A program made the position numbers and the translations under genes. The notes under the pieces were generated by a model. That model was not told the origin of the DNA, ran no database searches, and saw only the letters and a list, made by a program, of their open reading frames with translations. Of a stretch of DNA of 64,000 nucleotides, positions 10,036 to 52,387 are shown one piece after another; position 1 is the stretch's first letter; the number at the start of each line of letters is the position of its first letter. The DNA is from an uncultured delta proteobacterium (GTDB lineage: Bacteria > Desulfobacterota > Binatia > UBA9968): the NCBI GenBank assembly GCA_963727625.1, contig CAVSHR010000008.1, positions 128,001 through 192,000 of the forward strand. Reading direction: 5' to 3'.

Positions 10036-11565
10036 GTGACAAAGCAGAAAAAACCTCGCGTGCTGGTCTTTGTGGTGGCGTACAATGCCGAGCGCACGAT
10101 TGAAAGTGTTCTCTCGCGGATTCCAGCTAGCCTATCCGAGGGCTATGAGGTCGAGATTCTCGCCATTGACGACGCTTCACGCGATCGCACCTTCGAGGTC
10201 GGCCACAAAATCAAATCGGCCGGCTCGCTGTCTTTGCCGCTGCGCGTGCTTTTCAATCCGATCAACCAAGGCTATGGCGGCAACCAGAAAATTGGTTACC
10301 ACTACGCAATCAAGAATGAGTTCGATTTTGTCGCGCTGGTTCATGGCGATGGCCAATACGCCCCCGAAGCTCTCCCGGATCTGTTGAAACCCTTGGCTCA
10401 GGGCGAGGCCGACGCGGTGTTCGGTTCGCGCATGCTCAGCCGGGGCGCGGCATTGAAGGGCGGCATGCCGCTCTACAAGTTCGCCGGCAATAAGATTCTC
10501 ACCTGGTGCCAAAACCGTTTGCTGCGCACCCATTTCAGCGAATTTCATTCCGGCTATCGGGTCTACTCAGTGGCCGCCCTCAAACAAATTCCGTTCGATC
10601 GCAACACCAACGATTTTCATTTCGACACGGAGATCATCATTCAATTGTTGATCGCGGGCATGCAGGTCCGCGAGGTTTCGGTACCGACCTACTACGGCGA
10701 TGAGATTTGTCATGTCAATGGAATTCAATACGCCTGGAACGTCCTCAAAGCGACGCTCAAATCGCGGGTGCATGATTTCGGCATATTTTACGACAGCAAG
10801 TTTGATTGCGGCCCGGGATATGCCGCCAGCGTTCACTATGGACTCAAGATAGATTTTGACAGCCCGCATAGCGCGACTCTCGACCTCGTTCCAGCCGGAG
10901 CGAAAGTGCTTGATCTCGGTTGCGTCGGCGGTTATATGAGCGCGCTCTTGGAGCGCGAGCGCGGCTGCCAAACCACCGGTGTGGGCAAATTCCCCCTGGG
11001 AGCGAACGTCAAATTGAGCCGATTCATCGAGCATGACCTCAACGACGGTGTTCCCGAGGTGAACATCGCGGAGTACGACTACGTCTTGCTGCTTGACGTG
11101 ATCGAGCACCTGAACGTTCCGGAGATCTTTTTCGACCGCCTGCGCGAAGCCATGAAGTACTGTATCAAAACGAAATTGATCATCAGCACGCCCAATGTCG
11201 GGTTTTTTATCGTTCGGTTGATGCTACTACTGGGGCAGTTCAACTATGGCAAGCGCGGGATTCTCGACATGACCCATACCCGGCTCTTTACGTTTTCGTC
11301 GCTGCGCCAGTTGCTCGAACAACGGGGTTTCCGGATCGACAGCTCGCGCGGCATCCCCGCGCCGTTTCCGGTCGCGTTCGGCAACAACCGGGTCAGCCGC
11401 TTCCTGGTGGCGGCAAATAAGGCGGTGTTGCGAATCCTGCCCACGATATTTTCCTACCAAATACTCGTCGTCGCTCAGCCGCAACCTTCGTTGGAGTTGC
11501 TTTTGCGACGCGCGGAGGACGAGTCCTCCGCGCGGGCAAATACAATTGAATCGCCGCCGGGTTGA
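10036..11565 (+). CDS. GT2 (DPM1-like) glycosyltransferase fused to class I SAM methyltransferase-like domain
   Basis: AYNAE, IDDAS, NQGYGGNQK, VHGDGQY; C-terminal VLDLGC, LDVIEHL, STPN. Confidence 0.88.
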   Translation: MTKQKKPRVLVFVVAYNAERTIESVLSRIPASLSEGYEVEILAIDDASRDRTFEVGHKIKSAGSLSLPLRVLFNPINQGYGGNQKIGYHYAIKNEFDFVALVHGDGQYAPEALPDLLKPLAQGEADAVFGSRMLSRGAALKGGMPLYKFAGNKILTWCQNRLLRTHFSEFHSGYRVYSVAALKQIPFDRNTNDFHFDTEIIIQLLIAGMQVREVSVPTYYGDEICHVNGIQYAWNVLKATLKSRVHDFGIFYDSKFDCGPGYAASVHYGLKIDFDSPHSATLDLVPAGAKVLDLGCVGGYMSALLERERGCQTTGVGKFPLGANVKLSRFIEHDLNDGVPEVNIAEYDYVLLLDVIEHLNVPEIFFDRLREAMKYCIKTKLIISTPNVGFFIVRLMLLLGQFNYGKRGILDMTHTRLFTFSSLRQLLEQRGFRIDSSRGIPAPFPVAFGNNRVSRFLVAANKAVLRILPTIFSYQILVVAQPQPSLELLLRRAEDESSARANTIESPPG

Positions 11566-39265: not shown

Positions 39266-40678
39266 TTACCTCCGTTGAAACTCCGGCGCGGCCAAGAGCA
39301 ACGCCAGGGTGTCTATGCCGTGGGTTTTGGCCAGCGCTGCGCGCGTCGAGGGCGACAGGGAGTCAGGCGCGACCAAACGGATAAACGGCTGGCTCTGGCG
39401 CAAACTGTCAAGCTCGACACGCGCGCCGTTAATGCGATTGTTGACTAAATCGTGAGCGAAATTGATGCGCGTGAGCAACATCTCCGGGCTGATCCAAGCC
39501 GCGCCGGCATCCGGATAGCCGGTGGGTGGTTGCGCCAAGAATAGCGGTTCGCCCATGCGGCCGAGATAGCGCAGCAGCTGCGGCGTGATTTTGGTTTCGG
39601 CGTTTGTCAGTCGCAAGGCGCTGGCCGTGAACTCCACGGGTTTTTTCACTTTGGCTTGATAAGCGTCAGGTGAAAAAAAATCCGCCGAGTCGATGATGCT
39701 TCGAACCAGCGTTCGAATATCGCCGTCGCTCTGGTGAAACACGGCGGCGGCGCGATCGACCAAAGCCGCCGGCGGATCGTCGGCGACGAAGCGGCGCACC
39801 AGTTTGGTGGCGATAAATTTAGCGGTTGATGGATGGCGCGCCAAAAGATCGATGACTTTGATGCCGTCTTCGATGCCGCCGCCGGCCGCAATGCGCACGC
39901 CCAAAACCGTCTTGGCGCCGGGGTCATGCAGCCGCGGTTCGAAATGAAATGCCGCGTCGCCGCGCGGCCGGCGCAGGGTCCAACCGGTGAAGCAGCGCGC
40001 CACCTCGCGCACGTCTTCCTGGGTGTAGCCGCCATCGACTCCCAATGTATGCAGCTCCATGATCTCGCGCGCATAGTTTTCGTTGATGCCGCGCCGGCGC
40101 CGGTTCATCGGATTGCGCGCGGCGACGCTGTTAGGGCTCGCGCTGAGCCAGTTGTCAAGAAAGAAAAGCATGGCCGGGCTTTGCGCGGTGGCAAACAGGA
40201 GATCGCGAAACTTGCCCAGGGCATGGGGCCGGATGGTATCGCGGTCGTACGCGGTCATCAGCCAGCGGTCGGCGCCCTTGGCGGCGAAAACATTGAAATG
40301 ATTGCTCCAGAAATCGACCATCAGCTCATAGAGTTGGCGCTGGCTGTGCACGGCGCGCAGCAGCCGCGCCTGTTGCAGCTCGTAGATGATGAAGCGCGGC
40401 GCGTTCATGCCCCCAGCCATCGCCATGCCCCGTTGTTGAGCGACCTTTGGCGGCGGGTAAAGCTCGTACAGCTCGCGGCTGTTCATGCGCATGGTCTTGA
40501 GCGTCGCGACTCGCGCTTCAACGGCGCTGTCGGAGACGCTTTCAGCGGCGATCTGCTCGTCGAGAAAAGCACCGAAGCCGAGCCGGTTCACCTGTTGAAC
40601 CGTTTCGGGCGTCGGCCCGAAGCTGGTGCGGTTGAGAAAATGGATCACTCTTTGCTCGTGGCTGAGCGGCGCGCTCAT
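39266..40678 (-). CDS. DUF1800 family protein
   Basis: FWSNHF, SPAMLFFLDN, NENYAREIMELHTLG, YTQEDV, FQRR end. Confidence 0.9.
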   Translation of the reverse strand: MSAPLSHEQRVIHFLNRTSFGPTPETVQQVNRLGFGAFLDEQIAAESVSDSAVEARVATLKTMRMNSRELYELYPPPKVAQQRGMAMAGGMNAPRFIIYELQQARLLRAVHSQRQLYELMVDFWSNHFNVFAAKGADRWLMTAYDRDTIRPHALGKFRDLLFATAQSPAMLFFLDNWLSASPNSVAARNPMNRRRRGINENYAREIMELHTLGVDGGYTQEDVREVARCFTGWTLRRPRGDAAFHFEPRLHDPGAKTVLGVRIAAGGGIEDGIKVIDLLARHPSTAKFIATKLVRRFVADDPPAALVDRAAAVFHQSDGDIRTLVRSIIDSADFFSPDAYQAKVKKPVEFTASALRLTNAETKITPQLLRYLGRMGEPLFLAQPPTGYPDAGAAWISPEMLLTRINFAHDLVNNRINGARVELDSLRQSQPFIRLVAPDSLSPSTRAALAKTHGIDTLALLLAAPEFQRR

Positions 40679-40680
40679 GG

Positions 40681-41331
40681 CTAATCCTTTTCCCGTCTTT
40701 GAAATTTTTCGCGCAAGCGTTCGCGCAGATTGTTTCGCTCTTGATCCTTGCCGCGCTCTCTCAAATCGCGCAGTTTCTCTCGGGCTTCCCGTTTTTCTGC
40801 CGGCGATAACCGGTCGAAACGCGCGCGCGCTTTTTCGCGCAACTCATCGCGCTCGCGGCCGGAAAAGCGCTCGCGCCGTTCCTGTAATTTGTCCCTCAGC
40901 TCCCGGCGGCGCTCCGGCGGTAAATTGCGCAGGGTTTGCATGCGCCGTCTGAGTTCTTCGCGGCGCTTGGCCGGCAGCTGGCGCCAGCGCTGCCAGCGTT
41001 CCTGCAAGCGCCGCCGTTCGGCGGGCGTAAATTTTTGCCAGCGCTCGAAGTTGCGCCGGGCGATGGATTGATCTTCCGGCGAAAGCCGGCGCCAGGTTTC
41101 AAATTTCTTCTGCAGCTCGTCCTTTTCGGCCCGCGGCATATTTTGCCAGCGGCGATAACGCTCGCGCACTTCCTGTTTTTCTTCCGGTGTCATGCGCTGC
41201 CATCGTTCCAGTGCATCCCTATCGGCTTGGGCCAACAGCGCGCGCGGCGGCAGAGGCTGAGCCCAGACCGCGACGGGGACAAGCAGAGTCAATAGCCAAA
41301 CAAAGCTCAGATTTCTCAATAGCGGCTTCAT
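40681..41331 (-). CDS. DUF3106-like secreted helical-repeat protein
   Basis: Signal peptide; repeated W(Q/R)x(M/L/F)(T/S/P)xE units. Confidence 0.75.
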   Translation of the reverse strand: MKPLLRNLSFVWLLTLLVPVAVWAQPLPPRALLAQADRDALERWQRMTPEEKQEVRERYRRWQNMPRAEKDELQKKFETWRRLSPEDQSIARRNFERWQKFTPAERRRLQERWQRWRQLPAKRREELRRRMQTLRNLPPERRRELRDKLQERRERFSGRERDELREKARARFDRLSPAEKREAREKLRDLRERGKDQERNNLRERLREKFQRREKD

Positions 41332-41594
41332 TTAACCGTCTCCTTCTTTTTCCCAGGCGCGCCGGGCGGCGGCACGCCGCTCTTGACCAGCTCGTCGGTA
41401 CTCTCGAGATTTTGCATATCCTGAAGCATTTCCATTTGTTTGATCATTTCCATTTCTCGGAGGAATTCCATCATTTTAAGCATCTCACGATCGGGCGGGT
41501 CATCCTTGGCCCCGGCCGACGCGGCCGTTGGAGCCGTCAAGACCAGACATAGAATCAATCGGCTAAGCGAATTCATGTCCCGTGCGCGGCTCAC
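41328..41594 (-). CDS. small secreted hypothetical protein
   Basis: Signal-like N-terminus, Met/Glu-rich helix; 4-bp overlaps with both neighbours. Confidence 0.6.
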   Translation of the reverse strand: MSRARDMNSLSRLILCLVLTAPTAASAGAKDDPPDREMLKMMEFLREMEMIKQMEMLQDMQNLESTDELVKSGVPPPGAPGKKKETVK

Positions 41595-42109
41595 GCGGCA
41601 TTGCCCTGGCTGCCCATGAATTCCAGCAGATCAAGATTATCGAGCACGTCCATGGCCTTGAAAAATTCCAAGTTTTCCGCCACCGGTAGCACTTCCATCA
41701 TCTCGGCATCATCCTGGGCCAGCTCGTTGGTCGACCAGATGCCTCTGCCCAGAGTAAAAGTCATGGCAAGCGCGACGATCGCGGCCGCGGCGAAGACCGG
41801 CACCAGGCGCGGCTGATAAAAAGCCGCGAGAGCTTGGCGCCAACTTTTCTGTTCCGCCGTGCCGTCCAGTTTGTCGCGCAGCTCGCGATTGTAATCAGTC
41901 CAAAACGAAGGCGGCGGCTGGTCGGTTTTAACCGTCAGCGGCAGCAGCGAGCCGAGCTCTTGCAAGTAGCCGGCGCAACCGGCGCAGTTTTGTAAATGCG
42001 CTTGCAGCGTCGCGCCCTCGGTTCGGTCAAGCTCGCCATAATGGTAAAGCACGAGATTCTCTTCCAGTGCTGCGCATGGGGCGGAAAGGATTTTGTTTGG
42101 TTCTGCCAT
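41591..42109 (-). CDS. zf-HC2 anti-sigma factor
   Basis: HLQNCAGC motif, single TM helix, directly downstream of the ECF sigma. Confidence 0.85.
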   Translation of the reverse strand: MAEPNKILSAPCAALEENLVLYHYGELDRTEGATLQAHLQNCAGCAGYLQELGSLLPLTVKTDQPPPSFWTDYNRELRDKLDGTAEQKSWRQALAAFYQPRLVPVFAAAAIVALAMTFTLGRGIWSTNELAQDDAEMMEVLPVAENLEFFKAMDVLDNLDLLEFMGSQGNAA

Positions 42110-42118
42110 CCGGGCCTC

Positions 42119-42778
42119 CTAAGCAAACTCAGCCAGTCGCTGTCTAAGCGTGGTCACGGCGCGGTGCAAGTGCACCTTGACCGTGCCTTCGGCGGTCTCC
42201 ATCAATTCGGCGATCTCTTTGATCGACAGTCCCTGGTGATTTTTCAGTACGAAGGCGGTGCGCTGTTTCGCCGGCAGCTGCACCAACGCTTCGCCTACCC
42301 GCTTGGATATTTGCCGGGCCAAAACTTGCTGGTCGGGCAAAGGGGGCTTTTCACTTTGGTGTGATGGTTCCACTTGGTTCTCGACGGTCTCGTCGAACGG
42401 GTCCGCCGGGGCGCGTTTCTGACGGCGTTTATAATCGAGACAGAGGTTGACCAAAATGCGGTAGAACCAAGTATAAAAACTCGACCGGCCGTCAAAAGTT
42501 TTGAGATTGACGAAGGCTTTCAGAAACGCCTCCTGGGACAGATCCTTGGCATCCTCGCGGTCGCGGGTAAAATCGAAAGCGATGTGGTAGGCCTTTCGTT
42601 CATGGCGCTTCACCAGTTCCTCAAAAGCGCGGCGATCGCCTTGCCGCGCCGATGACACCAGCTCCTCATCCCCAGGGTTCACAAACGGACTCCAATCTAT
42701 CGCTGTTGCATCGCCGCAGAGGCCAAGAAGGAGCCGGCGGCGAGCACGGTTGGCCTCTACCGAGGCAGTGGGAGTCAC
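42119..42778 (-). CDS. ECF sigma factor
   Basis: AFEELV, DLSQEAF, SFYTWFYRI, LSIKEIA, GTVKVHLHRA; GGGAG RBS before GTG. Confidence 0.92.
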   Translation of the reverse strand: MTPTASVEANRARRRLLLGLCGDATAIDWSPFVNPGDEELVSSARQGDRRAFEELVKRHERKAYHIAFDFTRDREDAKDLSQEAFLKAFVNLKTFDGRSSFYTWFYRILVNLCLDYKRRQKRAPADPFDETVENQVEPSHQSEKPPLPDQQVLARQISKRVGEALVQLPAKQRTAFVLKNHQGLSIKEIAELMETAEGTVKVHLHRAVTTLRQRLAEFA

Positions 42779-42962: not shown

Positions 42963-43009
42963 ATTTGTACCCTCGTTCTGAATCGCCGGTCTTACCGGTT
43001 TGAAACGAT

Positions 43010-43037
43010 TAGACGCTTCGGCTCCCAGGAGGTTTAC
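43010..43037 (-). promoter_or_regulatory. putative ECF sigma (auto-regulatory) promoter
   Basis: GTAAAC-N16-CGTCTA on the minus strand fits the AAC...CGT ECF consensus. Confidence 0.65.
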
Positions 43038-44066
43038 AAGATCGGCATAGGCTGATTTTTTGTCCCGGTACAGTTCTTCCGCCAACCTGAAAAGTTCCGC
43101 GATCTTACCAACTTAAGCTTGTTCCGCCGTCGTGGCGGCAAGTTTGGCCAAGAGCCAATGGTCCTACCATCAGCGCTGTGGGGAACTGGCAAGCCGCCGC
43201 CACTCGGTTATCAAAGCGCTTTGGCATCTTGTACCAATGCGAATGAGGCAGGTTCGTTTGCCCCGCTGGCTGGGTGTTGCGGGAGGCTTACGGTATTTTT
43301 TTCTTCCGCTCCATTCCATGCCCACGCTGCCACTGCCGCGGCTGCTCGGATCACCTATAGGTGCAGCCAGGGGTCTTCCCTCCCCCTCGCACTTGCAGAA
43401 TCATTCGCACCCGAGCCGGTTGCGCAATCGGTTTGTACTTTTCAATCTTTCTGAGCGTCCCAATAGGCTGATCGCAACTTCATGTCTCAAATCCTGTTGT
43501 ATTCAGAATCACTGATCTTGAACAGTCGGTGTTGGTCAGCGGCTGCGAGCGCTAAAATGATCGATCGTCGCCAGTCCAGAGGTGCAGTGTCTGTCCAGTG
43601 CCATACGCGGCCTCGCAAAAAAATCGCAGTCCGCGCGAACTCGGCATGGTTAGGGACCTTAGGGTCGCTGGCCACTCCCGAATTACAGAGCGCAATGCGA
43701 TTCATCTACGGAGATGCGATAGGAAAATTACAACGATCATTAAATTTCCTGCCGTGATTACTTTGCTGGCTGGCAACGGCTAAGACTTTGCCCAAGGATC
43801 AGAGTCTGTTCGCCAAGTGATTCGCGACCAATCAGTGACCGCCGCGCGTCATTTGCTCGGGCTACGCTACCGTCGGGGCGGCATGACCGAACATTACGGC
43901 ATGGAGGTCCGTAATCCCACAAAAGCCCGCGGCAAGATTGGCCCTCTTTGGGGTCGAAATCGGTGCCTCGTTGTATGAGCTTGGGCTCCGGCTTGTCTAT
44001 GAACGCCTGGCTGCATCGACACGAAAGCATAAAGTCGGGGGCTAAGTTCGGCCACAAGCAAGTGAA

Positions 44067-44095
44067 TTGACAAGCAGGAATGGCTTCGGTACCTT
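44067..44095 (+). promoter_or_regulatory. sigma70 promoter of the leader ORF and metal-uptake operon
   Basis: TTGACA-N17-TACCTT. Confidence 0.7.
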
Positions 44096-44108
44096 CGTGA
44101 TCAAGTCA

Positions 44109-44399
44109 ATGTTTTCAATGGAACAAGACAGCGGTCGCCGGCTGATTGGCGCAATCCTATTAGCCTTCTTGGTTTTTCTACCGCTACACCATCACGCTTT
44201 TACGCCAACGACACAGGTCGCGAAAGAATGCGCATGCGTTCACGGGACGCGTACGCAGATGTTTTTACATGCCGATCTACCGACGGTCGCGCCGATTTTT
44301 CTTGTCACAGCTTTTGCCACACAATATGTATTTTTTTGGGCCGGCAACTGGTCCACTCAAAAAAAGGTCCGCGGTCCCCCCACTGCTCTTTCCGTTTAG
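44109..44399 (+). CDS. DUF2946-like leader peptide: signal/TM, HHH, CxCxH, C-terminal RGPP
   Basis: LLAFLVFLPLHHH...ECACVH...KVRGPPTALSV*; start at 44109 or 44118 because the TTG at 44067 is the -35 box. Confidence 0.75.
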   Translation: MFSMEQDSGRRLIGAILLAFLVFLPLHHHAFTPTTQVAKECACVHGTRTQMFLHADLPTVAPIFLVTAFATQYVFFWAGNWSTQKKVRGPPTALSV

Positions 44400-44426
44400 C
44401 TCGATCAACTATCCCAGCTAGTTTTT

Positions 44427-44476
44427 CGTCCTCTTTAGAGCCATTCGCGCGCTAAAGAGGGGACGTCATTTGTCTT
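44427..44476 (+). terminator. hairpin with U-rich tail between the leader ORF and the OM barrel gene (possible attenuator)
   Basis: cctctttag (44430-38) pairs with ctaaagagg (44452-60), extendable via cgtc/gacg; followed by tcatttgtctt. Confidence 0.5.
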
Positions 44477-44492
44477 GGAGGGGGGGCATTTT

Positions 44493-45776
44493 ATGGTGTT
44501 ATCCTTGTTACGGATGCCCGTGTTGAGCGCATCCGCTTTTGTCAGTTTTTTATTGCTTGTTCCGGTGCTGTGTTTCGCTCAAAGCTCTGAGATCGAGGCG
44601 TTGCGTTCGGTCGTTGACGGATTACAGCAGCAACTGCAAAAGGCCTTGCAGCGAATCGATCAACTGGAAAAAGAAAAGTCGGTTACGGCGGAGAAGATCG
44701 ATCGAGTGCAATCTGCGACTTCGACAGGGGTGGGAAATGTCGAAAAATCCGTACAGTCGCTAAAAGCTGCGCCGGCAGCTTTGAACCCGAGCATCGGAAT
44801 GGTGCTGGATGCCAATGTTTCGCAGAAGTCGGCAGAGGGAGGTAATTTCAATTTTCGCAGTGCGGAGATCGGACTTTCCGCATCCGTCGACCCGTTTGCT
44901 AGGGTGTACGGGTTTATCAACGGTACTTCGGACGGTGTGGAAGTGGACGAAGCGGCCGCGATTACAACTTCGCTGCCGTGGAACCTAACCGCGAAAGGGG
45001 GTCGATTCCTGGCCGATTTCGGGCGCTTCCCCAAGGTTCATGAACATGAACTGCCGTTCGTGAACGAGCCGCTGTCAGTGGAAAGAATGATCGGCGGGGA
45101 AACCCAGGCGGACGGGGTGGAGATGAATTACCTCTTTCCAACGCCATTTTTTTTGAGAGCGACAATCGGCGGATATAACAAGATAGGAGAGGGAAACGAT
45201 AGGGTAGACAACACAAATTTACGGTCGTGGAGTCGTTTCACCTACCTCGCCCGGCTCAATACTTATTTTGATATCACCGACAATCACAGTATCGAGTTAG
45301 GCACTAGCCATGCTTACACGCCTTCGCTGCGTCTTCCTGGCGATAGGTTTGGCGGAAATCGGATTCTCAGCGGCATAGATTTGACTTATCGCTATCAGCC
45401 GTTGGACAGCGTCGTGTACCAGGGATTAACTGTAGGCTCGGAATTTTTTCGCAACAGCGAGCGGATCGGGTTCGACGACGGTTCCAAACGGCGCCAATCC
45501 TACGGCGGCTATAGCTATGCCGAATTGAAGCTGAACAAGAATTGGTCTACGGGTTTTCTCTTCGATTATGCTCCTAGCATCGAAAGCCCCGGCAAGAAAA
45601 CCATCGGCTACTCGCCGTTTCTCACTTGGAATATGAGTGAATTCAATCGCTTGCGTTTGCAGTTCACACACATGGACGACCGCGTTCGTGAAGACAAGGC
45701 TGATCGCGGGAATCAGGTGTTTCTCCAATGGACCACGGTTATTGGAGCGCATACCCACGGCTTTCTTGGCCGCTGA
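44493..45776 (+). CDS. outer-membrane beta-barrel with N-terminal coiled coil (metal-uptake associated)
   Basis: Signal peptide, coiled coil, LNPSIG, SVDPF, HEHELPF, SEFNRLRLQ, terminal GAHTHGF. Confidence 0.75.
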   Translation: MVLSLLRMPVLSASAFVSFLLLVPVLCFAQSSEIEALRSVVDGLQQQLQKALQRIDQLEKEKSVTAEKIDRVQSATSTGVGNVEKSVQSLKAAPAALNPSIGMVLDANVSQKSAEGGNFNFRSAEIGLSASVDPFARVYGFINGTSDGVEVDEAAAITTSLPWNLTAKGGRFLADFGRFPKVHEHELPFVNEPLSVERMIGGETQADGVEMNYLFPTPFFLRATIGGYNKIGEGNDRVDNTNLRSWSRFTYLARLNTYFDITDNHSIELGTSHAYTPSLRLPGDRFGGNRILSGIDLTYRYQPLDSVVYQGLTVGSEFFRNSERIGFDDGSKRRQSYGGYSYAELKLNKNWSTGFLFDYAPSIESPGKKTIGYSPFLTWNMSEFNRLRLQFTHMDDRVREDKADRGNQVFLQWTTVIGAHTHGFLGR

Positions 45777-45800: not shown

Positions 45801-46730
45801 ATGAATAGCAGACTGTTGAGCCATAAAAACTGGAACATAATTTTGGCTGCTTTGTCTATTCTCGTCTTACAATCAGGTGCGGTTTTTGCGCAACAGATTC
45901 GAGTCGTGGCCACTTTTCCCGATCTCGCCGATATTACTCGGCAGATCGGCAAAGACTTGGTCAACGTGGATAGTCTCGCAAAAGGGGTCGAGGATCCGCA
46001 CGGCGTGCCCATGAAGCCGAGCTTTGTTCCTCGACTCAACCGTGCCGACGTGCTGGTTCTCACGGGCTTGGATGACGAGCATTCTTGGCTGCCGGCGCTT
46101 CTGGAAGTGGCCGCTAATCCCAAAATTCTTCTTGGCCGGCCGGGATATATAGACTGCTCAGCGGGTGTGCCGATACTTGAGGCGCCCGCATTGTTGGACC
46201 GATCGGAAGGTGATCTTCACCCAAAGGGAAATCCCCACTACTTGTTGGATCCTAATAACGCAAAAATTGCGGCACGGAACATCGCCGCCGGCCTTTCGCG
46301 AAACTTTCCTCAGCATCAGCAGGTTTTTGATAAAAATCTCAAAGCTTACCTCACGGAGCTCGACGGTTGGATCGTTCGCTGGGCGAAAATCGCGGCGCCG
46401 TTGCGTGGCGTCAAGTACGTCGAATACCATCCAGAGTGGGTTTATTTCGCCAATCGCTTTGGACTGAAACGGATCGGCAGCGTCGAGCTAAAGCCAGGCA
46501 TTGAGCCGACGCCGAACCATCTGGTTCAACTTGCTCGGCAGATCAAGCAGGAAAAGGCTCAAGTGTTGATTTACGGCGCGCAAAATCCGCGCATCCCCCA
46601 ACAGATGCATGGCGAAACCGGCATTAAAGTCCTGCGCCTTTACACCAGCGCGGGCGGCCGCCCGGAGACTGATAGTTACATCAAGTGGATCGATTATACC
46701 GTGCGCAGCTTAGTTCAAGCGGTGAGTTGA
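45801..46730 (+). CDS. Zn/Mn-type metal ABC transporter substrate-binding protein
   Basis: EDPH, HPKGNPHYLLDP, YH, ELKPGIEPT. Confidence 0.9.
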   Translation: MNSRLLSHKNWNIILAALSILVLQSGAVFAQQIRVVATFPDLADITRQIGKDLVNVDSLAKGVEDPHGVPMKPSFVPRLNRADVLVLTGLDDEHSWLPALLEVAANPKILLGRPGYIDCSAGVPILEAPALLDRSEGDLHPKGNPHYLLDPNNAKIAARNIAAGLSRNFPQHQQVFDKNLKAYLTELDGWIVRWAKIAAPLRGVKYVEYHPEWVYFANRFGLKRIGSVELKPGIEPTPNHLVQLARQIKQEKAQVLIYGAQNPRIPQQMHGETGIKVLRLYTSAGGRPETDSYIKWIDYTVRSLVQAVS

Positions 46731-46734
46731 GTTC

Positions 46735-47463
46735 ATGAAGAAAGCAACGGATACCGATGCGGTCCTAGCCACCAGAGGCGCGGCTCTGGGCGTCGACCTC
46801 GTGCCGCTGGTCTCACTCCAAAACGTCAGCCTGGGATACGGTTCGACTCGGGTCTTGATCAATGTCGACTTAACCGTCTATCCCGGAAACCTCGTTGGCT
46901 TGGCGGGGCCTAACGGTTCCGGCAAAACGACTCTTTTCAGGACGATTCTCGGCTTCTTGCCGGTGCTGGGCGGAACGCTTTCGCGCGGATGCTCGCTGGC
47001 CAATTTCGGGTACGTGCCGCAGAGCACGGCGCTCGACCCGCAGTTTCCACTGAGCGTCGGTGAAATCGTCGAAATGGGCGCCTATGGCCGTGTTGGTCCT
47101 TGGCGCCTTTTTCCGGCACATGAAACGAAACGAGCCGCGCAGGCATTGGAGCACGTGGGCATGGGGCATGTTCAAAAGAAATCCTTTTTTGCGCTCTCCG
47201 GCGGCCAAAAGCAACGCGTCCTAATCGCACGCGCGTTGATGGTCGACCCGAAAATCATGGTTCTCGATGAGCCACTTTCGGGAGTCGACGAGGAATCGCG
47301 GCGCAGCATCACCGAGCTGCTGATCGAGTTGGTTCGTGCGAGCGGTCTCGCGGTATTCTTTTCCAGCCATGATTTGGAAATGGTGCAGCGGGTGGCCGAC
47401 AAAATAGTTCGCGTCGATAGTGGGAGGGTTTTGGTCGAGGAAAGGCGGTCGCATTCGTCATGA
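46735..47463 (+). CDS. metal ABC transporter ATP-binding protein (ZnuC-like)
   Basis: GPNGSGKTT, GYVPQ, LSGGQKQRVLIARAL, LDEP, SHD. Confidence 0.92.
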   Translation: MKKATDTDAVLATRGAALGVDLVPLVSLQNVSLGYGSTRVLINVDLTVYPGNLVGLAGPNGSGKTTLFRTILGFLPVLGGTLSRGCSLANFGYVPQSTALDPQFPLSVGEIVEMGAYGRVGPWRLFPAHETKRAAQALEHVGMGHVQKKSFFALSGGQKQRVLIARALMVDPKIMVLDEPLSGVDEESRRSITELLIELVRASGLAVFFSSHDLEMVQRVADKIVRVDSGRVLVEERRSHSS

Positions 47464-48908
47464 ATAGTTTTCTGGAAATCATGAGTCCTTCCTACCTGCT
47501 CTTCCCCGCGCTAGTCGGCACGCTGATCATGGGGGTCGTCTGCCCGCTTATCGGATCTTTTCTAGTGTTGCGCAGAACGATTTTTCTAGGCTTGACGCTC
47601 CCCGAAATCGCCGCCGCAGGGGTGTCGTGCACCTTTTGGTTGCAGCAAGTCGGAGTCTTGCCACAGCTCGCACAGGGCGAGCGAGGCATTGGCATGATCG
47701 GCTCTCTAGTGTTTACTTTCCTGGGGATGGGCTTATTGGGTTATCTGGAGCAGCGCGGTAAGGGACTGGCCGAAGCCCGGCTCGCGGCCGCCTATGCGTT
47801 TGCCGGAGCTTTGACCATTTTGTTCATGGTGTTCAATCCGGCCGGTCAGATTGAAGTGCTCAACCTCCTCAAGGGTGAGGTCATCGCCTTGACGCGTGGC
47901 GAGCTCAAGCTCGTAGTTGCGCTGTTCGGCGCAGTCGGCGTTGCCATGCTGGCGTTCCGCCGCGAATTTCTTTTGACCTCGTTCGATCGCGACCTGGCTT
48001 TTCTGCTCAAGGGGCGGCAGATTGTCTGGGATATATTGCTCTATCTGCTCGCCGGCTTGATCATAGCGATCGGCGTGATCATGGCGGGACCGTTGTTGAT
48101 TTTTGGTTTTCTAGTGTTGCCAGCGCTCGCGGCCAAACCGCTGGCCAAACGCATGAGTACCTACCTGCTGCTTTCTTCCTTGCTCGGATTCGCGATGGCG
48201 TTTATGGGTTTCTACAGTTCGGTGCGCCTGGATCTTCCCCTGGGTCCGAGCGACGTGGCCCTGGGCTGCTGCTTGATTTTTGGCGCCTATGGGTTAGGCA
48301 GGATAACAACCCGGAAAGCGGCCGCGTCAGTCGTGCTGATTGGCTTGGCTATGACATTGAGCGCTTGCGGCGCCCGCGTAGCCACAAGTCCGGTGCCGGA
48401 GGCCAAAGCCATTCATGCCGAGCAACTCTGGTTGGCCAAGGTGCGGAACAGCACCGCGCTGCCGTTGCTCTTGCCGACCGCCAATCCGCTCCGCTCGCTT
48501 GCCGAGATGGCCGGCAAGACTTCATCGAATTACCGGGAGAGCGTGATGGATTTGTTGCGTGAGAATTTGCAGGCTGAGCTCGTCTTGAAAGGCTTCGACA
48601 TTTCTCGTCCGGAGGACAAGGACGCGCGCTTCCCGCCGTTTCCCGCGGATAACCTAAGCGCCGCGCGCATGGCTCGCGAGGGAAAACTATCGGGGATGGT
48701 TTTCGTAAGCGAGATTTACCGGTGGGAGGGCGAAACGCAAAGGTTTGTTCGCGCCCTCGTGGATTTCAAACTTGTGCGCATCGATGACGGTGCGATCGTC
48801 TGGCAGCGACGGGTTCAGCGCGCTGTTCCAACGCCCAGCGCGACCAATCTCGCGCAGGCCTCGGCCGACGCTGTCAAAGCGATCATGCGGGACCTGTTTC
48901 CCAGCTGA
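47460..48908 (+). CDS. metal ABC permease (ZnuB-like) fused to a C-terminal lipoprotein-like domain
   Basis: ABC-3 pattern LRRTIFLG, SFDRD, FLVLPA; then LSA-C and ~180 soluble residues. Confidence 0.85.
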   Translation: MNSFLEIMSPSYLLFPALVGTLIMGVVCPLIGSFLVLRRTIFLGLTLPEIAAAGVSCTFWLQQVGVLPQLAQGERGIGMIGSLVFTFLGMGLLGYLEQRGKGLAEARLAAAYAFAGALTILFMVFNPAGQIEVLNLLKGEVIALTRGELKLVVALFGAVGVAMLAFRREFLLTSFDRDLAFLLKGRQIVWDILLYLLAGLIIAIGVIMAGPLLIFGFLVLPALAAKPLAKRMSTYLLLSSLLGFAMAFMGFYSSVRLDLPLGPSDVALGCCLIFGAYGLGRITTRKAAASVVLIGLAMTLSACGARVATSPVPEAKAIHAEQLWLAKVRNSTALPLLLPTANPLRSLAEMAGKTSSNYRESVMDLLRENLQAELVLKGFDISRPEDKDARFPPFPADNLSAARMAREGKLSGMVFVSEIYRWEGETQRFVRALVDFKLVRIDDGAIVWQRRVQRAVPTPSATNLAQASADAVKAIMRDLFPS

Positions 48909-48921
48909 AAAGGCAAAAGCT

Positions 48922-49671
48922 ACGTCAACCATCTGGTCCTATAGCCTCGCCAGCGTCATCCTGGTAAGCCTGCTGTCACTCGTCGGCATCGCCTTTGTCT
49001 CGATCAGCGAGCGCCGACTGAATCAGCTCATTTTCGTGATGGTCGGTCTCGCCGTCGGCAGCCTGTTCGGCGATGCTTTTATCCACCTCCTGCCACGGTC
49101 CTTCGAGCAGTCGCCGAATCACTTGCGTGTCTCGCTGGCGATTCTCGCCGGGATTTTCGCATTTTTCGTCCTGGAAAAATTTCTCCTCTGGCGCCATGAG
49201 CACGTCCTGGAACCCGGCCACGCGGTCCATCCGGTCGGATACATGAACCTGGTCGCCGATGGGCTGCATAATTTTATCGACGGCGTGATTATCGGCGCTT
49301 CTTATCTTGTCAGCTATCAAACCGGCGTCGCTACGACGCTGGCGGTAATCTTTCACGAAATTCCCCACGAGCTCGGCAATTTCTTTGTCCTGCTGTACGC
49401 CGGATTTACAAAAACCAAGGCACTGTTTTTTAATTTCGTCTCGGCGCTGGCGGCGATCTTGGGCACGGTGATCGCGCTCGTCATCGGCTCTGAAATGCAG
49501 AACTTCGCGCAGATGATGCTACCCCTCGCGGCGGGCGGATTTATTTACATCGCCGGTTCCGATCTGGTTCCCGAGCTCAACAAAGAGGTGCGGCTGTCGA
49601 AATCGCTGGTGCAAATGGTTTCGATCGGCGCGGGCATCGGTTTGATGTTGTTGCTAGCGCTCGTGGAATGA
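48922..49671 (+). CDS. ZIP family metal transporter; start codon uncertain (ACG)
   Basis: DAFIHLLP, DGLHNFIDG, HEIPHELG, GGFIYIA. Confidence 0.9.
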   Translation, partial: TSTIWSYSLASVILVSLLSLVGIAFVSISERRLNQLIFVMVGLAVGSLFGDAFIHLLPRSFEQSPNHLRVSLAILAGIFAFFVLEKFLLWRHEHVLEPGHAVHPVGYMNLVADGLHNFIDGVIIGASYLVSYQTGVATTLAVIFHEIPHELGNFFVLLYAGFTKTKALFFNFVSALAAILGTVIALVIGSEMQNFAQMMLPLAAGGFIYIAGSDLVPELNKEVRLSKSLVQMVSIGAGIGLMLLLALVE

Positions 49672-49681
49672 AAGGAACTCC

Positions 49682-52387
49682 ATGAAAACTTGGTCTAGAT
49701 TCCCCGACTTTGACTGCGTCCGGTTAGTGCGGTGGACGTTACTCCTCTGCAGCATCCTGTTTTTCACCCGAGGAAATGTCTTCGGCGAGGTCGCTGGCGA
49801 ATCGCAAATCACCCGCGCGACGCTCAAGAACGGTCTGCGTGTCGTGATCGTTCGCAACGCGCTCGCGCCGGTGGTGACCACGGAAATCAATTACCTGGCC
49901 GGATCCAACGAAGCGCCCGACGGCTTTCCCGGCATGGCCCACGCCCTCGAACATATGATGTTTAGGGGCAGTTCGGGGCTGACGTCGGCTCAGCTCTCCA
50001 GCCTGATCGCGGCCATGGGCGGAAGTTTCAACGCCGATACCCAGCAGACGGTGACGCAATATTTTTTCACCGTTCCAGCGAACGATCTTGAAACCGCGCT
50101 GCATATCGAATCGTTGCGCATGCGCGGCGTGCTAGCGACCGACGCGCTGTGGGAGCAGGAGCGGGGCGCCATCGAACAGGAGGTGGCGCAGGACCTGTCC
50201 AATCCGCAATATTTGTTTTACTCGCGGCTGCTCGAGCAAATCTATGCCGGCACGCCCTACGCGCACACCGCGCTAGGCACCCGGCCGTCGTTTGATAAAA
50301 CCACAGGCCTGATGCTCAAGGATTTTCACCGAAAATGGTACGCGCCCAATAACGCGATTTTAGTGATCGTTGGCGACGTGAATCCAACCCAAGCGCTCGC
50401 CACCGTCAAGCGGTTGTTCGAGCCGATTCCGGCCCGTTCTCTACCGGCGCGACCAAAGATCGTCCTGCCGCGGCTGAAGCCCGGCAAAATCGAAATTGAT
50501 TCCGACCTGTCCTACGGCTTGGCCGCCGTTGCGTACCGTCTGCCGGGCTACAACGACGCGGATTTCGCCGCTGGGATCGTCTTGGCCGACGCGCTCGATA
50601 GCCGCCGCGGCGAACTGTACGGGCTCGCCGCCGAGGGTAAAGCGCTGTCCGGCGGATTCGACGCCAGCGCCTTGCCCGCCGCCGGCTTCGGATACGCCAA
50701 TGCGGCGTTTTCCCACGGCCAAGACAGCGCGGCGTTGGTCGATGAACTCAAGCGCATTGTCGCGGGCTATGTCGCCGACGGCATCCCCGCGGAGTTGGTG
50801 GAAGCGACCAAACGACACGAAGTGGCGGAGGCGCAATTTCGCAGAAATTCCATCGCGGGATTGGCCGCCGAATGGTCCCAAGCGCTGGGGGTAGAAGGGC
50901 GGCGCTCGCCGGACGACGATATCGAAGCAATCAAAAAAGTTACGGCCGACGACGTCAACCGCGTTGCGAAAAAATACTTGGTTAATGAAAACGCGCTCGT
51001 CGTGGTCATGACGCCGCACGAATCCGGCGAGGCCGTAGCAGCGCAGGGTCCACGTTCGGGCGGCGAATCTTTTACGCCCAAAGAGACTAAACCGGTGCCG
51101 CTGCCAGCCTGGGCAAAAAAAGTGCTTGCGCCATTGGCTGTGCCGGCATCTGCCGTCCATCCGATTGATACGATGCTGCCCAACGGTTTGCGTCTGATCA
51201 TTCAACCCGAATCTATCAGCGATACCGTGAGCGTCTACGGCCGGGTGAAACACCGCGCCGAGCTGCAAGTGCCGCCGGGCAAGGAAGGGACGGAGCAGAT
51301 TCTTAGCAGTCTCTTCTCTTACGGTTCGACTCAGCTCGATCGACTCGCTTTCCAACGAGCCCTCGATAAGATCGGTGCCAGGGTTCATGCCGGCACCGGG
51401 TTTTCACTCGAAGTCTTACCGGACGATTTTGCACGCGGCGTGGAATTGTTGGCCGATAATTTGCTGCATCCCGCGCTTCCCGAGGCCGCGTTCAAGGCGG
51501 TCCGGCAGCGCACGGGTCAAGCCGTGGCCGGTCAACGGCTCAGTCCGATCTACCGTTCGGGCCGGGCGTTCCTTAAAGCGATCTATCCTGAAAATGATCC
51601 GACTCTGCGCGAAGCGACGCCGGAAACCGTGGCATCGATTACGCTCGAAGAGGTGCGTCATTATCATCAAGCGGTCTTCAGACCCGATCTCACAACGATT
51701 GTCGTCATCGGTAAAGTGACGCCGGAACACGCGCGCGCCGTCCTTGAACGATATTTCGGCGCATGGCAGGCCAGCGGTCCAAAACCGAAAACCGAGCTGC
51801 CGCCGGTGCCGCGCAATGGCGCCGCCACAATCGTGGTGCCGGATCGAAGCCGAGTCCAAGACGAGGTCACGCTCGGTCAAACTTTCGGATTGACCCGCCG
51901 CGACGCCGACTACTATCCGCTGCAGCTCGGTTTGAACGTTTTATCCGGCGCCTTCTATGCGACGCGTTTATACCGCGACCTGCGGGAGCAAAGCGGACTG
52001 GTTTACTCAGTGGGGGCTGAGCTGGAATCGAGCAATTCCCGATCTGTGTTCGTCGTGTCCTACGCCTGCGATCCGGTCAACGTGACCAAAGCGAGAGCGA
52101 TCGTCGAGCGCAATCTGCGCGAGATGCAGCGCAAACCGGTGACCGCCGCCGAATTGTTGCAAGCGAAAACTTTACTTTTGCGGAACATCCCGCTGTCCGA
52201 ATCGAGCACGGGTGAGATCGCGGCGGGATTGCTCGATCGGGCCACCCGAGAGCTGCCGCTCGATGAACCGATGCGCGCAGCTTCACGGATTAAAGATATG
52301 ACGGCGGCCGATGTTCAAGCCGCATACGCGAAATGGCTCAAGGTCGAAGAGCTTGCCGAGGTCGTGCTGGGGCCAGAGCCCAAGTAA
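49682..52387 (+). CDS. M16 (pitrilysin-family) zinc peptidase
   Basis: GMAHALEHMMFRG (HxxEH), WYAPNNA, duplicated two-half architecture. Confidence 0.92.
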   Translation: MKTWSRFPDFDCVRLVRWTLLLCSILFFTRGNVFGEVAGESQITRATLKNGLRVVIVRNALAPVVTTEINYLAGSNEAPDGFPGMAHALEHMMFRGSSGLTSAQLSSLIAAMGGSFNADTQQTVTQYFFTVPANDLETALHIESLRMRGVLATDALWEQERGAIEQEVAQDLSNPQYLFYSRLLEQIYAGTPYAHTALGTRPSFDKTTGLMLKDFHRKWYAPNNAILVIVGDVNPTQALATVKRLFEPIPARSLPARPKIVLPRLKPGKIEIDSDLSYGLAAVAYRLPGYNDADFAAGIVLADALDSRRGELYGLAAEGKALSGGFDASALPAAGFGYANAAFSHGQDSAALVDELKRIVAGYVADGIPAELVEATKRHEVAEAQFRRNSIAGLAAEWSQALGVEGRRSPDDDIEAIKKVTADDVNRVAKKYLVNENALVVVMTPHESGEAVAAQGPRSGGESFTPKETKPVPLPAWAKKVLAPLAVPASAVHPIDTMLPNGLRLIIQPESISDTVSVYGRVKHRAELQVPPGKEGTEQILSSLFSYGSTQLDRLAFQRALDKIGARVHAGTGFSLEVLPDDFARGVELLADNLLHPALPEAAFKAVRQRTGQAVAGQRLSPIYRSGRAFLKAIYPENDPTLREATPETVASITLEEVRHYHQAVFRPDLTTIVVIGKVTPEHARAVLERYFGAWQASGPKPKTELPPVPRNGAATIVVPDRSRVQDEVTLGQTFGLTRRDADYYPLQLGLNVLSGAFYATRLYRDLREQSGLVYSVGAELESSNSRSVFVVSYACDPVNVTKARAIVERNLREMQRKPVTAAELLQAKTLLLRNIPLSESSTGEIAAGLLDRATRELPLDEPMRAASRIKDMTAADVQAAYAKWLKVEELAEVVLGPEPK

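Follow-up and report, generated by a model that had tools for sequence, protein, structure and literature searches.

A probable zinc-responsive family of arrest-peptide leaders heading predicted zinc-uptake operons in Binatia and other soil bacteria

Introduction

To our knowledge, the metal-sensing arrest peptides tested so far, CruR and CutF, respond to copper. Bacterial zinc uptake, for its part, is regarded as being under transcriptional control by Zur. Here we describe a small open reading frame (ORF) at the head of a predicted zinc-uptake operon in a 64,000-nucleotide (nt) stretch of DNA from an uncultured delta proteobacterium (Desulfobacterota; Binatia; assembly GCA_963727625.1, contig CAVSHR010000008.1, positions 128,001 to 192,000), hereafter the window, to which all coordinates refer. 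Comparative sequence analysis suggests that this ORF is probably a zinc-responsive variant of the metal-sensing arrest-peptide leaders.

The closest described systems are the DUF2946 leaders, including CruR and CutF, which are reported to sense copper through a Cys motif acting together with a C-terminal proline motif (PMC9426467, PMC9973294). In the account given for CruR (Bp2923) of Bordetella pertussis, the operon stays on for as long as the ribosome is arrested, and the metal relieves the arrest (PMC9426467), a logic that suits an uptake system. Further "CutF-like" proteins have been catalogued beside metal genes, including versions with His-only clusters next to Ni/Co genes (PMC9973294); thus, the class extends beyond copper. 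The RAPP and RGPP motifs themselves are described as giving a robust, EF-P-refractory arrest in several contexts, and the survey of Fujiwara et al. 2025 lists small secreted proteins bearing them upstream of genes for TonB receptors, YcnI, PCuAC and PepSY, having dropped cases in which the downstream gene was annotated as unknown, as the porin-like gene of the present operon would be (PMC12992588). The main text of that survey mentions neither zinc nor ZnuA nor ABC transporters, and zinc and ZnuA have no occurrence in the main text of PMC9973294; the supplementary lists of both may name the family described here. Full-text literature searches recovered no paper describing a zinc-responsive arrest or leader peptide at znu genes.

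A conserved family of small proteins with ligands at a fixed distance from a proline motif

The leader ORF (44109..44399, forward strand) codes for 96 residues from the ATG at 44109 to the TAG stop at 44397-44399, in agreement with a preliminary description of this DNA that had reported an ORF of about 95 residues and whose named sequence features were all recovered in place. Judged by its homologs, the ORF is a real, conserved gene of an unannotated family, of which we collected 215 proteins. Six-frame searches recovered homologs with 32-70% identity in 22 of 41 related genomes, a tally that takes in the unpublished genome G005, on which no other claim rests; by family of relatives, they are found in 18/24 (f1), 3/5 (f2) and 0/11 (f3) genomes. 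A HMMER search of 1.84 billion representative sequences returned 110 proteins at E<=1e-3, one of which (P0102, a 423-residue repeat protein) is a false match, and a profile search of 5.8 billion proteins returned 118 at E<=1e-5, every one of them named "hypothetical protein" and devoid of a Pfam domain. The leader protein likewise has no match to any Pfam or NCBIfam family. An affinity to DUF2607, which stood at rank 13 in the ESM Atlas behind nearest clusters without names, was considered but rejected, as there is no Pfam DUF2607 match.

In an alignment of 61 sequences, comprising the window protein and 60 of the 110 HMMER matches, H29, C41, C43, R88, P90 and P91 are invariant, while L24, P25, H27, G46 and R48 are at least 90% conserved. 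The most conserved residues of the family are therefore the very ones to which the preliminary description had assigned a role, namely the R[A/G]PP motif near the C-terminus, two His and two Cys, though with some correction of detail. Of the His triplet (His27-His28-His29, 44187..44195, part of LPLHHH), only the outer two residues are conserved, H29 invariantly; the middle position is Phe in 108/212 proteins and His in only 2. Similarly, in the CACVH segment (44229-44243) it is the Cys41-Ala-Cys43 core (44229..44237), an invariant CxC lying 44 residues before Arg88, that holds up, whereas the final His does not (H in 128/212, Q in 49/212). The proposed arrest motif, Arg88-Gly-Pro-Pro91, is encoded by CGC GGT CCC CCC (44370..44381), with the R and both P invariant, and is followed, as had been noted, by just five codons before the stop. 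These five, ACT GCT CTT TCC GTT (T A L S V; 44382..44399 with the TAG), are pyrimidine-rich.

The CxC motif occurs together with R[A/G/S/D]PP in 212 of the 215 collected proteins (RAPP 161, RGPP 48, RSPP 2, RDPP 1), and the two are separated by 44 residues in 207/212 and by 45 in a further 4. The tail after the Pro-Pro is mostly 2-5 residues long (5 in 131/212, 2 in 47). The spacer is thus fixed in length while being poorly conserved in sequence, which is what would be expected of a distance ruler rather than of a fold. Along the same lines, an AlphaFold2 model built with the family alignment shows a single helix (residues 8-23) and otherwise coil (pLDDT 70, pTM 0.30); the lack of a folded domain in it fits a sensor that acts as a nascent chain. 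The helix (44130..44177) is hydrophobic and preceded by Arg-Arg, with the family consensus RRxIxAxLLLxVFFLPLH. No small-x-small cleavage site is evident by eye, which makes a signal anchor likelier than a cleaved signal peptide, and the helix is probably such an anchor.

The leader family precedes two types of predicted zinc importers

A scan of one genome per species, with a 10-sequence alignment as query, returned 26 public loci. Most of these are labelled as metagenome-assembled genomes (MAGs) of Candidatus Binatia or "Deltaproteobacteria", with single loci from Acidiferrales, Chloroflexota and Udaeobacter and two from Syntrophobacter-like bins. The leader frame ends in R[A/G/S]PP plus 2-6 residues in all 26. 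Its usual downstream neighbors are, in order, a gene for a protein of ~415-440 residues without a Pfam family, and genes for ZnuA, an ATP-binding cassette (ABC) ATPase and an ABC-3 permease of ~490 residues, followed by either a ZIP transporter or an amidohydrolase. ZnuA is encoded downstream of the leader in 21/26 loci; of the other five, three are cut off by the contig end within the first gene, one lacks any sequence further downstream, and the last, L027, has MerC and NlpC/P60 genes instead. Thus, the ORF is conserved upstream of orthologous operons, a point on which the preliminary description had let its own reading stand or fall.

The window follows the usual order, all genes lying on the forward strand. 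The porin-like gene (44493..45776) is followed by those for a ZnuA-type binding protein (45801-46730; Pfam ZnuA 6e-50), an ABC ATPase (46735-47463; ABC_tran 3e-28), an ABC-3 permease with a C-terminal extension (47460-48908; ABC-3 1e-31) and a ZIP transporter (ending at 49671, its start being uncertain; Zip 6e-48), so that the Zn/Mn-type ABC and ZIP operon read from the bare sequence is borne out by the Pfam matches. The NCBIfam models AztC, ZnuA, MntC, AztB and ZupT all score below their cut-offs on the operon proteins. Since the binding protein falls short of the AztC, MntC and ZnuA cut-offs alike, zinc is the metal suggested by the ZIP transporter, the thiolate ligands of the leader and a second type of operon that includes ZrgA. 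The latter is seen in the genome G014, which has three leader copies within 10 kb (L040, G014:C4:72500-90500; 1585-1881, 2419-2715 and 10781-11179). The first precedes a gene for a 165-residue protein without a Pfam family. The second heads an operon with the composition MerC-DUF3299-ZrgA ("zinc uptake protein")-ABC ATPase-FtsX/MacB-NlpC/P60, which we take to be that of the ZrgABCDE zinc importer of Vibrio. The third heads a porin-ZnuABC-ZIP operon followed by a cation-efflux (CDF) gene. Hence, the leader family heads two unrelated types of importer, with zinc as their common denominator.

The proline codons are predicted to pair with the downstream Shine-Dalgarno sequence

In the window, 93 nt separate the stop codon of the leader from the start of the porin-like gene. 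The Shine-Dalgarno (SD) sequence of the latter, GGAGGGGGGG (44477..44486), lies seven bases before the ATG at 44493-44495. Between the two genes is a hairpin (44427..44465, -17.2 kcal/mol) with an anti-SD-like 5′ arm and an SD-like 3′ arm, and between the hairpin and the SD a U-rich tract, UCAUUUGUCUU (44466..44476), with 5 U in 8. In both the minimum-free-energy and the centroid folds of 44355-44500, the stretch GGUCCCCC (44374..44381), which comprises the Gly and Pro-Pro codons, pairs with GGGGGGGC (44480-44487) inside the SD and encloses the hairpin. The pairing between the C run of the RGPP codons and the G run of the ribosome-binding site that had been surmised in the preliminary description is, therefore, present in the predicted fold.

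We extended the RNA analysis to 27 loci (the window and L009-L034, with downstream starts picked by SD score), which are related to each other, such that the counts and P values drawn from them overstate independence. Each of the 27 has a hairpin, with energies ranging from -9.2 to -27.6 kcal/mol. The U-rich tract is semi-conserved as TTTnTCTT (alignment A3), with at least 5 U in the 8 nt starting 0-2 nt past the stem in 12/27 loci (7 in L021 and L024). Accordingly, the hairpin of the "U-tailed hairpin" described earlier is conserved, whereas a terminator-like U tail is restricted to those 12. The probability that the SD pairs with the end of the ORF, from the Arg codon to the stop, has a mean of 0.74 and is at least 0.37 in 25/27 loci, the window having 0.77. 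The mean energy needed to open the SD is 13.0 kcal/mol in the free mRNA vs 7.3 kcal/mol when the footprint of an arrested ribosome (the mRNA through 16 nt past the first P-site base) is masked, and the difference exceeds 1 kcal/mol in 23/27 loci. In the controls, it is 9.8 kcal/mol with the ORF end dinucleotide-shuffled and 7.1 kcal/mol with another coding segment of the same gene in its place. The region from the Arg codon to the start is also more stable than its shuffled versions (mean z -2.17, below -1.64 in 18/27 loci, window -2.31).

Codon usage in the tail points in the same direction. All-pyrimidine codons make up 50/66 (76%) of the Leu and Ser codons of the tail vs 514/1809 (28%) of those of the downstream gene. 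As this bias is synonymous, selection on the tail seems to act on the RNA. Thus, in silico, the arrest site overlaps the structure predicted to occlude the downstream start.

A proposed mechanism and its alternatives

On this basis, we hold with some confidence that the ORF is a cis-acting leader of the RAPP/RGPP arrest class that controls a zinc-uptake operon after transcription. What is computed in support of the leader reading is the conservation, the fixed spacing, the operon context, the predicted pairing and the codon bias; from these we infer the arrest itself, zinc as its ligand, the release of the arrest by the metal and the place of sensing. In the mechanism we envisage, the N-terminal helix would insert co-translationally as a signal anchor, and the ribosome would arrest at RGPP with its P site on 44376-78 and its A site on 44379-81, a geometry taken over from PMC10951233. 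It would then cover the Gly-Pro-Pro and tail codons, with the pyrimidine-rich tail at the mRNA entrance. As the bases of the arrest site are the ones that pair with the SD, the arrested ribosome should free the start site of the porin-like gene and keep the operon on. At this point, the CxC would be 47-49 residues and the HxH 61-63 residues from the peptidyl-transferase center, which by our estimate places the ligands just past the exit tunnel or at the outer face of the docked translocon. When zinc is plentiful, the four ligands would, outside the tunnel or translocon, close around the metal and tug on the chain; the tug would relieve the arrest, the ribosome would terminate, and the long-range helix would re-form over the hairpin and block initiation. 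The sign adopted, with arrest and an active operon when the metal is lacking, is that of CruR, which was chosen as the sensible one for an importer.

Beyond the relatedness of the 27 loci, several points weigh against this proposal. At the RNA level, the footprint-masked SD still needs ~7 kcal/mol to open. For the window taken alone, the occlusion of the SD was no lower when the ORF end was shuffled (13.8 vs 11.0 kcal/mol), the pairing being there largely a matter of the composition of a C run and a G run, and a match to an SD is to be expected of Pro-Pro codons in general. With wider flanks, the fold of the window is no better than its shuffles (z -0.78, or -0.27 without the ORF end). Two loci with tails of two residues, L027 and L028, depart from the pattern in that the partner of the SD is the intergenic region; in L028, a CCUCC-like stretch comes after the stop of such a two-codon tail. 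The covariation of the helices, which the preliminary description had proposed as a check, did not emerge: RNAalifold found no consensus pairs in a MAFFT alignment of 25/27 loci (L027 and L028 omitted). As the variable intergenic region aligns poorly, this neither demonstrates nor refutes covariation. There is also no visible SD upstream of the leader ORF. As to the metal, the sub-threshold scores of the binding protein leave its specificity uncertain, and for a His2Cys2 site, Cu, Co, Ni or Cd are conceivable too. Both signs of the metal effect on arrest have precedents, copper being reported to relieve it in CruR (PMC9426467) and to enhance it in CutF (PMC9973294). Finally, the genome carries three FUR-family genes, and hence ordinary control by Zur is possible.

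An alternative that retains the arrest differs in the output. As reported for CruR, the closest characterized analog (PMC9426467), the stalled ribosome could shield the transcript from Rho or hold a paused polymerase, and its release would lead to premature termination before the operon, with SD occlusion being secondary. The intergenic regions, which are 73-121 nt long and pyrimidine-rich, would be compatible with this, and the conserved hairpin with its U-rich tract could serve as a pause site. However, the specific pairing between the ORF end and the SD and the pyrimidine-biased tail point to a control of initiation. We regard such an output as rather unlikely to be the principal one, bearing in mind that it and SD occlusion are not mutually exclusive.

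An unlikely proposition is that the product is a stable small membrane protein in zinc uptake, such as a metallochaperone of the periplasmic face or a partner of the porin, in which the R[A/G]PP would be a structural or sorting element, and the RNA pairing a by-product of Pro-Pro codons beside a strong SD. The combination of His and Cys ligands with a membrane helix is one that a metal-handling membrane peptide could well have, the leader gene is strictly co-located with uptake genes, and the compositional origin of much of the pairing in the window would be in its favor. Yet such a protein would not be expected to have a 44-residue spacer that is constant in length but not in sequence, and the low pTM of the model argues against a folded domain. 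Furthermore, selection is reported to act against RAPP and RGPP in proteomes, arrest peptides being the exception (PMC12992588), the synonymous bias of the tail codons works at the RNA level, and one type of leader heads two unrelated types of transporter.

Lastly, classical attenuation of the opposite sign, wherein the hairpin and U tract would form an intrinsic terminator, the free ORF end would act as an antiterminator through the 3′ arm of the hairpin, and a stall at RGPP would turn the operon off, is very unlikely: the complementarity required exists (gtcccc at 44374-79 and ctcttt at 44386-91 with aaagaggggac at 44454-64, all as first written) and 12/27 loci have the U tract just past the stem, but the antiterminator fold, which the preliminary description had offered as one of two mutually exclusive structures, is in the window 17.8 kcal/mol weaker than the nested fold (-24.7 vs -42.5 kcal/mol), 15/27 loci have no proximal U tract, a terminator scan did not call the hairpin at 44427-44465, and in the predicted ensembles the partner of the ORF end is the SD and not the hairpin. 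Taken together, the earlier observation of a leader ORF is confirmed, while its interpretation as a metal-sensing arrest leader is partly supported by the comparative evidence, with several details corrected.

If the leader reading is correct, nascent-chain sensing of metals would, through a family with a ligand set of its own, reach zinc and uncultured soil lineages; the family stands before two unrelated zinc importers, and its hosts include Binatia, Acidobacteriota and Verrucomicrobiota. With its fixed length, the 44-residue spacer offers a testable handle on the distance from the peptidyl-transferase center at which a metal has to be bound in order to act on arrest, which is also relevant to CruR and CutF. 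The finding also offers a starting point for assigning functions to an unannotated porin family and to about 200 small "hypothetical proteins" without a Pfam family. More tentatively, and with less than even confidence, we would advance that this is the first zinc-sensing nascent peptide, in which a His2Cys2 site, split between an HxH at the membrane face and a CxC 44 residues before the arrest motif, closes on Zn(II) only while the ribosome holds the chain, thereby releasing the RGPP arrest and shutting the porin-ZnuABC-ZIP operon by re-pairing of the SD, with the ruler having been re-used or re-invented and the system acting beside or instead of Zur. Were this true, a 44-45-residue ruler found outside the DUF2946 model would constitute a general design for co-translational metal sensing, and its geometry would serve a second metal in little-studied soil phyla, again beside Zur or in its stead.

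The leader region and the genomic neighborhood

A candidate promoter lies upstream of the leader at 44067..44095 (forward strand), with the -35 element TTGACA at 44067-72, a 17-nt spacer and the weak -10 element TACCTT at 44090-95. The arrangement of AATTGACAA, the 17-nt spacer and TAnnTT is kept in the window, L002 and L009 despite diverged flanks, which lends weight to the sigma70 promoter proposed earlier; a consensus promoter scan, however, did not call it, and with its weak -10 we regard it as plausible. Alternative starts of the leader are the GTG at 44097, the ATG at 44118 and the TTG at 44067, from the last of which the frame is open over 44067-44399. Rfam had no match at E<=1 in 43000-45000, and a search of 43900-44130 for a Zur box found no inverted repeat of at least 10 nt within 30 nt.

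About 650 nt upstream of the leader, on the same strand, is an open frame (43119-43454; VFFSSAPFHAHAAT...ESFAPEPVAQSVCTFQSF) that has the look of a second family copy in decay. BLASTP aligns it with the family member P0066 (E-value 3e-6, 30% identity), the alignment having a gap of 17 residues that spans the CxC region, and TGA GCG TCC CAA takes the place of the R-A-P-P codons; a search with the family profile at E<=0.01 did not recover it. It may be a remnant of the leader of a lost Zrg-type operon, such as the one in G014. Still further upstream, a divergent cluster on the reverse strand (39266-42778) codes for an extracytoplasmic function (ECF) sigma factor, a zf-HC2 anti-sigma factor, DUF3106 and DUF1800 proteins. 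An ECF sigma factor gene adjoins the leader in relatives too (L002-L004, L008, L040).

The first gene of the operon (44493..45776) specifies an outer-membrane porin-like protein of 427 residues, modelled as a signal peptide followed by a long N-terminal coiled coil and a ~16-stranded barrel. It has no sequence match in Pfam, NCBIfam or the PDB (the last at E<=1), but Foldseek searches with its AlphaFold2 model (pLDDT 66) return as best matches the general and specific porins OmpT, OmpU, OmpF, OprP, OprO and DcaP, with E-values of 3e-10 to 1e-7. Its C-terminus has the conserved motif WTTV(I/L)G(A/S)HTHGF, and its coiled coil is like that of DcaP. In the long-read MAG loci L010, L020, L031 and L034, the gene is split by apparent frameshifts, which are probably sequencing errors. 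The C-terminal extension of the permease (47460-48908) comprises ~200 residues without a Pfam match and starts at a lipobox-like LSACG; the resulting total of ~482-494 residues recurs in most loci, while in L017 a permease of 299 residues is followed by a separate ORF, and in L029 the extension matches HEAT_2. The amidohydrolase that replaces ZIP at the end of the operon in L016, L018, L032 and L044 is a 390-residue protein (Amidohydro_1/3). Downstream of the ZIP gene in the window is a gene for a 901-residue double M16 peptidase (49682-52387, forward strand). Its best NCBIfam matches are the EF-P 5-aminopentanol modification-associated YfmF and YfmH, at 114 and 98 bits vs cut-offs of 285 and 250, which probably represent generic M16 similarity; they are mentioned here because EF-P bears on proline stalls.

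Comparison with known arrest leaders

Although the leader shares the design of the DUF2946 (PF11162) proteins, it was not recovered by their hidden Markov model (HMM), a match to which had been suggested as a check on the preliminary description: none of the 61 aligned family members matches it at E<=1, and a six-frame search of the genome carrying the window has no match at E<=0.01. Across 201 genomes from the phylum, the HMM yields 5 weak matches, 2 of them above the cut-off, in long or stop-containing frames. The resemblance to CruR that had been claimed is nevertheless apparent in the architecture. As described in PMC9426467, both are small exported leader ORFs heading a metal-import operon, and both combine a Cys motif, a fixed spacer and a RAPP-type motif near the stop. 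In the window, the R[A/G]PP expected a few residues before the stop is an RGPP followed by five residues, and the spacing, given there as ~45 residues from CXXC to RAPP and fixed within 1-2 residues, has its counterpart in the near-invariant 44 residues from CxC to Arg. The differences are equally clear: the present family has CxC (C41, C43) in place of CXXC and adds the conserved HxH; the leader has ~96 residues vs 145 in CruR; zinc takes the place of copper as the predicted metal; the regulated genes encode a porin, ZnuABC, ZIP or Zrg-type proteins and not a TonB-dependent transporter; the predicted output is SD occlusion as opposed to Rho termination; and the hosts are Binatia and other soil phyla, whereas CruR and DUF2946 are from Proteobacteria.

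With regard to the RNA, the closer parallel is CutF of Rhodobacter capsulatus, in which stalling is reported to melt a structure shielding the downstream SD, as proposed here (PMC9973294). The architectural rule for CutF-like proteins agrees with the window leader in its 96 residues, the PP 5 residues from the C-terminus and the 93-nt gap; where that rule has an N-terminal signal peptide, the window leader has Arg-Arg and a hydrophobic helix (residues 8-23) that is more likely a signal anchor. In contrast, CutF is described as governing a detoxifying oxidase, with copper enhancing the stalling (PMC9973294), while here an uptake operon would be regulated with the opposite sign. The arrest peptides ApdA, ApdP and ApcA likewise are small secretory or membrane proteins that carry RAPP or RGPP at the C-terminus and are encoded upstream of the regulated gene (PMC10951233, PMC12992588), but are described as monitoring protein localization and not metals. 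Thus, the class of arrest leaders is a known one, within which the present family, sharing the architectural rules while lying outside the DUF2946 HMM, appears to be new.

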